Assembly (NCBI GenBank): GCA_951406725.2
Contig: OX597814.1
Location: forward strand, 184,078,001 to 184,142,000
Reading direction: 5' to 3'
From: Octopus vulgaris
Lineage: Eukaryota
Length of the DNA: 64,000 nucleotides
Shown here: positions 59,225 through 60,090 of the stretch, piece by piece
Layout: each line of letters opens with the position of its first letter
How positions within the stretch are numbered: position 1 is the first letter of the stretch
Made by a program: the position numbers and the translations under genes
The notes under the pieces: generated by a model
What the model was told of the DNA's origin: nothing
Database searches by the model: none
The model's input: only the letters and a program-made list of their open reading frames with translations

Positions 59225-60090
59225 AGGAATAAAACCACTATTATTATATTGGACAAAGAAACAGAGGTAGCAAATTAGATAACAAGTGAATTTATAATAG
59301 AGATTATGGAATTAAATAACTTGATGGAGTGCAACACACGAATGAAAAAATCGGTCAAAGATGAATATTATAGACACATAAAGTAATACTCAAAGTAGCG
59401 GTAGATAGAACAAAACCGATCAAACAAAGTGATACGTGTTATTATCTGATATAGTAATGGTTACAGTCATAACATTCTTGAAAAGAATCTAATTGAATTA
59501 GTAAAAGCAGACATGTAAACGACGCAAATAATGTTCTGAGAATACACTTCCAGAATGCCACGGAAACTGGGATGAAGTGTTTTACGAGAAAATCATATTT
59601 AATAAAAAAATGAAATGGAAAATAATAAAAATAACTACAAAATATGAAAAAATGAAATATTATTTCTGATTTTAAGGAACCCTGCATACATAAAGCAGGG
59701 TGTGAAGATGAGGCAATAGAATAAACTGAAAAGGAATACATACGCAAAAATATTGGCAAAAGACCCCATACATCCCGGACGAGCCCATCGTTACTTTTTT
59801 AATGGCGGTGCCCCAGCATGGCCACAGCTCATTGGCTGAAACTGGAAAATCAAAAATCAAAATCAAATACATGACTAATAACTGAGAAAAATAATCAAAG
59901 GAGAAATGACAAAATTGGAACTTCATGAACTGGAGAACTATGAAATACAGTATACTAAAGTAACTACAGAATTAAGAGTGTAATAATGTACAAGAGTTAA
60001 TATATTAGAAAATGACAAAATTACAATAATCAGATCAATTTGCTGACAGGATATTGAGACGAATCGCTGATATATGATTGGGAAATTTAA
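59225..60090 (+). mobile_element. Old Dong/R4-clade LINE remnant (RT thumb onward)
   Basis: MKKSVKDEYYRHIK, YSHNIL..ELVKAD, WQK.P(I)H (cf. KPLHG); very decayed. Confidence 0.5.
59772..59866 (+). pseudogene. Putative pre-tRNA-Pro 3' fragment fused to a CR1/SINE-type tail
   Basis: atcccggacgagccc (tRNA-Pro 3' end) + atcgttac + T6 + aatggcggtgccccagcatggccacagctcattggctgaaac + (aaaatc)n; flanked by atac duplication. Confidence 0.55.

Follow-up and report, generated by a model that had tools for sequence, protein, structure and literature searches.

Template switching has been proposed as the route by which transfer RNAs (tRNAs) gain the tails of long interspersed nuclear elements (LINEs), and a section of PMC4476161 presents this as the standard proposal for the birth of short interspersed nuclear elements (SINEs). 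The same section describes chimeras of U6 with L1, L2, RTE and their SINEs. In vitro, the reverse transcriptase (RT) of R2 jumps from the end of one template to the end of another after non-templated additions, according to the part of PMC4117753 that deals with this enzyme. Cephalopod repeats have been described without such a feature in the available portions of two accounts (PMC9068888, PMC10294476). Here we analyze an insert at 59768-59870 in a stretch of 64,000 nt of the Octopus vulgaris genome (contig OX597814.1, positions 184,078,001 to 184,142,000; hereafter the window), which joins the 3' end of a proline pre-tRNA to the tail of a LINE. The 5' part of this insert is a copy of a cellular small RNA through its 3' end, as its match to an existing tRNA-Pro gene extends through the trailer.

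The sequence parts named in the original prediction, which was made from the letters of the window alone, are all present (Table 1; tRNA positions are counted backward from base 73, following the standard convention). The ATAC flanks are also in place, but the repeat is not limited to the predicted 4 bp: around the whole insert it reaches ATACAT, giving 4-6 bp, and the first tRNA bases (59-60, AT) may represent microhomology with the target. Contigs from three of four public runs (X2, X4 and X18), which carry three organism labels, cross the 5' junction into the tail, and the fourth run covered the 3' side only; the insert is therefore real and common to three organism labels, and no assembly artefact. 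An empty site was not found in the four public runs, in flank-sequence searches or among 15 Dong/R4 copies. Upstream, the flank shows a weak similarity to Dong/R4 (tblastx E 0.006-0.008 at 59333-59533). Under the original prediction, removal of the insert would restore the frame of an old Dong ORF; comparisons with Dong/R4 and with the flanks gave no alignment spanning the insertion site. Elsewhere in the window, a young Dong/R4-type 3' fragment follows a long (ATA)n array (61130-61620), with 93-96% identity to at least 39 other copies.

Table 1. Positions in the window of the parts of the insert and of a second, U6-headed element.
Feature	Positions	Strand	Basis
Target-site duplication, 5' copy, ATAC	59768..59771	+	Read directly; ATACAT = 59768-59773, overlapping tRNA bases 59-60
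tRNA-Pro positions 59-73, without CCA, beginning just 3' of A58	59772..59786	+	Same sequence at the 3' end of gene L004, a tRNA-Pro(TGG), and of further Pro genes
Pre-tRNA trailer ATCGTTAC (59787-59794) and T6 (59795-59800), RNA polymerase III (Pol III) oligo-U end	59787..59800	+	8-nt trailer shared with the gene at G000:C25:20396170, L002 and L003
CR1-group LINE 3' tail: AAT, hairpin 1 (59803-59824), hairpin 2 (59825-59838), AAACTGG	59801..59845	+	Adjoins the stop of the RT open reading frame in L064, L065 and L067; fold; paired changes
Terminal (AAAATC)n repeats of the LINE subfamily	59846..59866	+	Other copies end in the same repeats
Target-site duplication, 3' copy, ATAC	59867..59870	+	Read directly; ATACAT reaches 59872
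Sister event: U6 at full length (4867-4761) followed by a SINE-type form of the tail (4760-4715)	4715..4867	-	Rfam RF00026, 108.7 bits

A 27-mer covering the tRNA end and the trailer, with at most one mismatch allowed, has four matches in 2.8 Gb and none with the control. One of these, L004 (G000:C25:20396170), is an intact tRNA-Pro(TGG) gene that matches at 26 of 27 bases and whose trailer reads ATCGTTAC-TTC-T6; the 8-nt trailer recurs in the chimeras L002 and L003, with T4 and T5 and two other tail variants behind it. By chance, an 8-nt trailer would match one of approximately 50 genes with a probability of about 0.001. The 15 nt that had been assigned to the 3' end of tRNA-Pro without CCA are identical to this and other Pro genes, a tRNA-Pro gene with the predicted trailer exists (with one mismatch in the T run), and the proposal that a pre-tRNA was captured at its oligo-U end is supported by the match through the trailer. 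Approximately 40 nt downstream of the trailer, at 1555-1570 of L004, a second CGTTAC leads into an unbroken stretch of T, which hints that the gene acquired the C in its T run recently.

The exact tRNA-Pro 15-mer has 69 matches, all of which were retrieved and most of which are genes. Twenty Pro copies are chimeras with a tail or a SINE, counting L003, which has one mismatch and comes from the 27-mer search and not from the exact set. Thirteen of them start at about position 59, two at 38 and five are full or near-full length. The start at 38 lies just after G37, which we take to be a site of 1-methylguanosine (m1G37). Trailers could be traced to extant genes for L001-L003 (L004), L042 (L040), and L050 and L053 (L047). 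As a separate observation, 39 tRNA-Pro 3'-end matches, nearly all of them genes, are clustered at G000:C1:113.18-113.34 Mb (L006-L034, L059-L061), and three members of this cluster have an internal T-arm deletion. In L050 (approximately 440-600), an inverted copy of the element's own tail and trailer precedes the Pro chimera, with a fold-back at GGGATCCC that resembles a snap-back of complementary DNA (cDNA). Primer-binding sites of 18 nt for tRNA-Pro, with CCA, were seen in L036, L037 and L043 (around position 500), apparently belonging to long terminal repeat (LTR) elements. For the insert such a site was ruled out, as a trailer stands in place of CCA and a LINE tail in place of the LTR.

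The LINE origin of the tail, originally described as CR1-type, is borne out by the LINE-extended copies L064, L065 and L067, where the tail adjoins the stop of the RT open reading frame (ORF) in the same orientation as in the insert. The frame carries an RVT_1 domain and ends in VPDEP...KKHP; its protein relatives include one from Argonauta, the nearest with a name, and a single polymerase named as jockey-type. We assume the label CR1/Zenon (Jockey superfamily) on the basis of this VPDEP-type C-terminal motif and not of an RT tree. The same motif bears on the reading under which the original prediction was to fail, namely that the tRNA-like segment comes from the C-terminal IPDEP region of a CR1 ORF2; a match by chance is considered alongside it. 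The segment does translate as IPDEPIV and the LINE does have a VPDEP motif, but the VPDEP codons lie about 100 nt upstream of the tail and consist of different DNA, so that the resemblance to IPDEP is coincidental. In LINE copies, the tail is directly preceded by DNA that bears no relation to the tRNA segment of the insert, and segment and trailer equal a tRNA gene at 26 of 27 bases. We consider both the ORF2 reading and a chance match refuted, with next to no probability left to them.

The tail folds as two hairpins, with a single-sequence z of only -1.7, and two-sided changes are found in 6 of 13 pairs among eight tail variants. The variant present in the insert has 12 exact copies in the genome: three extend into the LINE, six are solo tails and three are chimeras, consisting of the insert itself, a full pre-tRNA-Val and a U6. 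A 30-mer of the tail has 6715 exact copies. When the first 30 of these were classified blind, 18 were LINE-extended, three were SINE ends, one carried 10 nt, five were solo and three were chimeras (two U6 and one SINE head). A self-cleaving ribozyme in the tail was considered and ruled out by eye, as two simple hairpins fit neither the hammerhead core nor the layout of the hepatitis delta virus (HDV) type. Rfam at the gathering threshold identified nothing beyond U6 in the 64-kb window.

The insert is not an isolated case. The collected loci contain 64 distinct tail chimeras with 13 RNA types (a script count made before the Glu search). Genome-wide patterns of a tRNA followed by a tail gave 42 matches for Glu, 16 for Gly (including two Gly-TCC) and 10 for Lys, and none with the controls; T5-AAT-tail gave 43 exact matches and none with its control. 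Reading 30 of the latter revealed 17 tRNAs, two U6, one 5S and two SINE heads, with six unclear cases and two without a partner; one of the partners is an intron-containing precursor, presumably of the Ile type. Approached from the side of the partner, the first 30 of 186 U6 3' ends comprise nine that are gene-like, 10 on a tail, nine on the start of a SINE, one on another fragment and one tandem of two U6, and none among these 30 is joined to a LINE body or to poly(A). Mature, CCA-ended tRNAs were captured as well, and full-length SINE starts also serve as joined partner. The general system suspected in the original prediction, in which LINE tails capture Pol III transcripts, is thus visible across the genome as tRNA, U6 and 5S 3' ends that precede tails. 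The window itself contains a sister event (Table 1), whose SINE-type tail lacks the second hairpin and whose U6 has a 5' variant that matches the U6 gene cluster L261-L267 (C1:139.42 Mb). The insert fragment has no A and B boxes and the sister copies differ in tail and junction, which does not fit a SINE family amplified from a common founder. Half of the high-scoring tRNA matches examined (10 of 20, a non-random sample among the 34 listed by an Rfam search) are chimeras, and tRNA gene counts are therefore likely to be inflated in this genome.

Several individual loci deserve mention. L045, L049, L054, L222 and L227 have no terminator between the tRNA end and the tail or SINE (direct or CCA joins), a layout from which a new SINE could start. 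L281 (approximately 1400-1700) contains two U6 head to tail, followed by the end of a different element, which suggests serial template jumps, and in L211 the trailer is repeated ahead of a short Gly piece. Sequences of no recognized type end in T5 on the tail in L083 (approximately 1430-1540), where the 5' and 3' ends pair, and in L122 (approximately 1420-1510); these could be unannotated Pol III RNAs. For eight loci with such 5' partners, Rfam returned microsatellite-driven noise only.

The sister chimeras were copied from RNA, as is evident from the loss of introns, the CCA copies and the changes at position 58. In the Lys(TTT) genes at C9:94.94 Mb, introns are present and position 58 is A. 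L188 agrees with one of these genes in both leader and trailer, L152 shares the trailer of a second (with one difference at position 57) and L193 is one base off the trailer of a third; all three copies are without the intron. By extension, the insert itself would be RNA-templated. Capture at the level of DNA, in which a cDNA or repair polymerase copied the DNA of a tRNA gene, agrees with the colinearity of trailer- and intron-containing copies with genes. Nevertheless, it is refuted for the spliced and CCA-ended copies, and the ending of copies at oligo-T and the selective alteration of position 58 also speak against it; overall we regard it as extremely improbable. All three intron-less Lys copies have T58, whereas A58 is found in six of six intron-retaining chimeras (p=0.012). 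Though the numbers are small, this suggests that splicing precedes end trimming, and that methylation takes place with or after splicing. The intron-containing tRNA-Lys(TTT) cluster corresponds to L199-L201 (G000:C9:94.94 Mb), and L141 is an intron-less Lys(TTT) gene. A further Lys chimera, L202 (approximately 1440-1560), begins at the 5' end of the intron, and may derive from a splicing intermediate or from a stop near position 37.

Position 58 stands out among the copied tRNAs. In read-through Lys and Gly copies a base other than A was found at 58 in 8 of 20, compared to 10 of 440 at the other positions within 38-60 (p=9e-8), and A58 is present in 42 of 42 Pro genes. A genome-wide search with fixed context found seven Gly copies with non-A58, all of them chimeras, four of which had not come up before. 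The T-arm sequence is common to Gly and Glu, as is TT at 59-60. Yet, starts at 58-60 occur in 7 of 16 Gly chimeras versus 2 of the 30 Glu chimeras examined (out of 42; p=0.005), and misreads of position 58 as T or G in 5 of 9 versus 0 of 28, respectively (p=0.0003). This comparison rules out microhomology at AT or T-arm structure as the sole cause of starts at 59; AT microhomology still shapes unblocked ends. For group II intron RTs, a T/G read-out and stops at 1-methyladenosine 58 (m1A58) are reported in the accessible text of 10.1101/2023.12.09.569604, and in yeast m1A58 is added early in the nucleus (PMC10275265, in the part concerned with this modification). We infer that the stops and misreads at position 58 are the signature of m1A58.

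The junction with the tail is also constrained. All 33 chimeras of the Lys, Gly and Glu sets with the tail of the LINE (pattern spacer of at most 24 nt) retain 0-5 nt above the hairpin. The 5' ends of 70 LINE-family copies are bimodal: 42 lie at most 7 nt from the hairpin or inside it, one at 10 nt, none at 11-100 and 27 at more than 100 nt. These 70 come from three samples, from which three SINE copies were dropped; two samples required or favored AAT and one favored upstream T runs. As the break point is the same whether the tail is of the LINE or the SINE version, although the sequences upstream of the two are unrelated, the tail itself is likely to set it.

End-to-end template jumping during target-primed reverse transcription is, in our view, probably the best explanation of the insert. 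In this model, the LINE protein would prime on the terminal repeats at an AT-rich nick, and the RT would copy a tail RNA of approximately 65 nt that ends 2-5 nt above hairpin 1 and run off its 5' end. It would then add a few bases and jump to the 3' end of a nuclear RNA, here the oligo-U end of a pre-tRNA-Pro. Copying may end at a modified base, likely methylated A58, or at microhomology, and the end of the cDNA would be joined via short AT microhomology. The tail RNA might end above hairpin 1 when decay of the remainder is blocked by bound LINE protein, which is a guess and the least supported step; a specific cut is the alternative. Most products are expected to be dead-end copies, because the Pol III terminator is kept between tRNA and tail; the few products without a terminator have the layout of a newborn tRNA-headed SINE. 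The jump finds support in the joining of CCA-ended tRNAs and SINE starts (L054, L222, L227) and in serial joins (the U6 tandem in L281, and L211).

Oligo-U ends of pre-tRNAs and CCA ends carry a 3'-OH, and Pol III transcripts start with a triphosphate. These properties matter for the main competing scenario, in which RNA ligation comes first: the LINE or SINE RNA would be cut just above the tail hairpin, an RtcB-type ligase would join it to a trimmed pre-tRNA or U6 end, and the fused RNA would be retrotransposed. Ligation has been demonstrated for human U6/L1, where it needs a cyclic-phosphate end and a 5'-OH, and is strongly reduced when U6 ends in a 3'-OH or L1 begins with a 5'-triphosphate (PMC6789731). 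The fixed junction suits a nuclease cut, the U runs vary in length as trimming would give, and intron loss and the marks at position 58 fit ligation equally well. However, oligo-U ends of pre-tRNAs, CCA ends and SINE starts are all among the joined partners, and as the first two have a 3'-OH and the last a triphosphate, the partner types argue against joining by RtcB. The extra bases at junctions and the serial joins suit an RT jump. We therefore view ligation as unlikely, though it retains appreciable weight.

The insert could alternatively have arisen in two steps, either through a tail or SINE that landed at the T run following a tRNA gene, with later retrotransposition of the read-through transcript, or through a SINE that later entered an existing chimera. 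These elements favor AT-rich targets and terminators are T-rich. Nevertheless, there is no tail behind the source genes L004, L040 and L047, the C9 Lys genes or the U6 cluster, and L004 alone is the source of three chimeras that differ in tail and junction. Copies without the intron or with a cut 5' end cannot be genes, and of 13 SINE-joined chimeras eight have a single tail, five have none in the stretch examined and not one has two. The two-step scenario is largely refuted and very improbable.

Several points weigh against template jumping as formulated above, or against parts of it. The jump is attributed to this RT by analogy with a property of R2 in vitro. The C in the T run of the source gene is missing from all three chimeras, a one-base difference that requires either that the gene changed afterward or that the RNA end was trimmed and then re-uridylated, and many other Pro chimera trailers match no gene among the 69 matches of the 15-mer. 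In the insert, the start at 59 is ambiguous, as the AT of 59-60 is also part of the target duplication. Glu would be without m1A58 in this organism, which we infer from the same chimera data, and the ends of Glu copies fall mostly at AT/TA sites, which means that microhomology has a part in shaping ends. The tRNA-tail patterns allowed a spacing of at most 24 nt, in which longer LINE pieces are invisible; the U6 and Pro sets do not have that limit. Finally, most tails are not chimeric (3 chimeras among 30 in the blind sample, Wilson interval 3-26%).

We lean toward a wider interpretation, held with less confidence than the jump itself: a discrete tail RNA of about 65 nt with a defined 5' end, routinely made by this LINE group, would act as a universal adaptor, to which the RT would append nuclear RNAs of any kind that end in oligo-U or CCA and so write them into the genome. 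This would leave behind a fossil tRNA-seq library that gives, from DNA alone, the m1A58 status of each tRNA and the order of splicing, methylation and trimming, together with a standing pool of SINE precursors with a tRNA head and a LINE tail. Many independent single events with this layout can be counted and compared here, and the range of partners and the fixed junction make the choice between ligation and template jump testable beyond U6/L1. As copies appear to keep RT stops and misreads at A58 as well as splicing intermediates, genomes could report tRNA modification and the order of processing in species that lack tRNA sequencing.

Among known systems, the LTR primer-binding site for tRNA-Pro resembles the insert in that it also begins at 59 (as in L036, L037 and L043), but it has CCA and no trailer and abuts an LTR, whereas the insert has a trailer, T6 and a LINE tail. 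The pre-tRNA retropseudogenes that Schmitz is said to have described in 2004 reportedly have no LINE tail, with the tRNA as the site of priming; in the chimeras here it is the LINE tail that serves for priming. L1-made retropseudogenes of this type, as cited in PMC4476161, are like the chimeras here in that nuclear precursors were RT templates. In R2 jumping (PMC4117753), as far as that account goes, the RT likewise adds a few bases at the template end and continues on the 3' end of another RNA, but in vitro and in a different clade. The tRNA/LINE-1 chimeras of PMC11838501 share the insertion of tRNA sequence with a LINE 3' end; in the portion describing them they comprise 21 loci, mostly antisense 5' halves with twin priming, in contrast to the sense 3' parts or whole precursors with trailer found here. 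No sense pre-tRNA capture at a fixed tail edge and no genomic m1A58 marks were found in the open-licence literature searched, an absence that is weak given this scope. Additional tRNA chimeras may be present in the supplements of PMC4476161 and PMC11838501.

U6/L1 retropseudogenes, as covered by the relevant parts of PMC6789731 and PMC4476161, are similar in combining a Pol III RNA with a short T run, a sense join to the 3' part of a LINE and a single insertion. They differ in that the L1 parts are variably truncated, whereas here the join is at the tail edge or the SINE start, and here there are 13 RNA types, mostly pre-tRNAs with a 3'-OH, and a CR1-group LINE with a structured tail. The nearest match is formed by U6/L2, U6/Mon-1, U6/RTE and U6/AnolisSINE2 of platypus and lizard (PMC4476161), which likewise involve stringent-tail LINEs and their SINEs, a short LINE part, short duplications and proposed template switching. 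That survey considered U6 only (40 in platypus), leaves one CR1 case in turkey unresolved and, in the section concerned, mentions neither pre-tRNA partners nor a fixed junction nor marks of modification. U6-LINE chimeras as such are known, and the scale, the fixed junction and the record of modification were not found in the literature searched.
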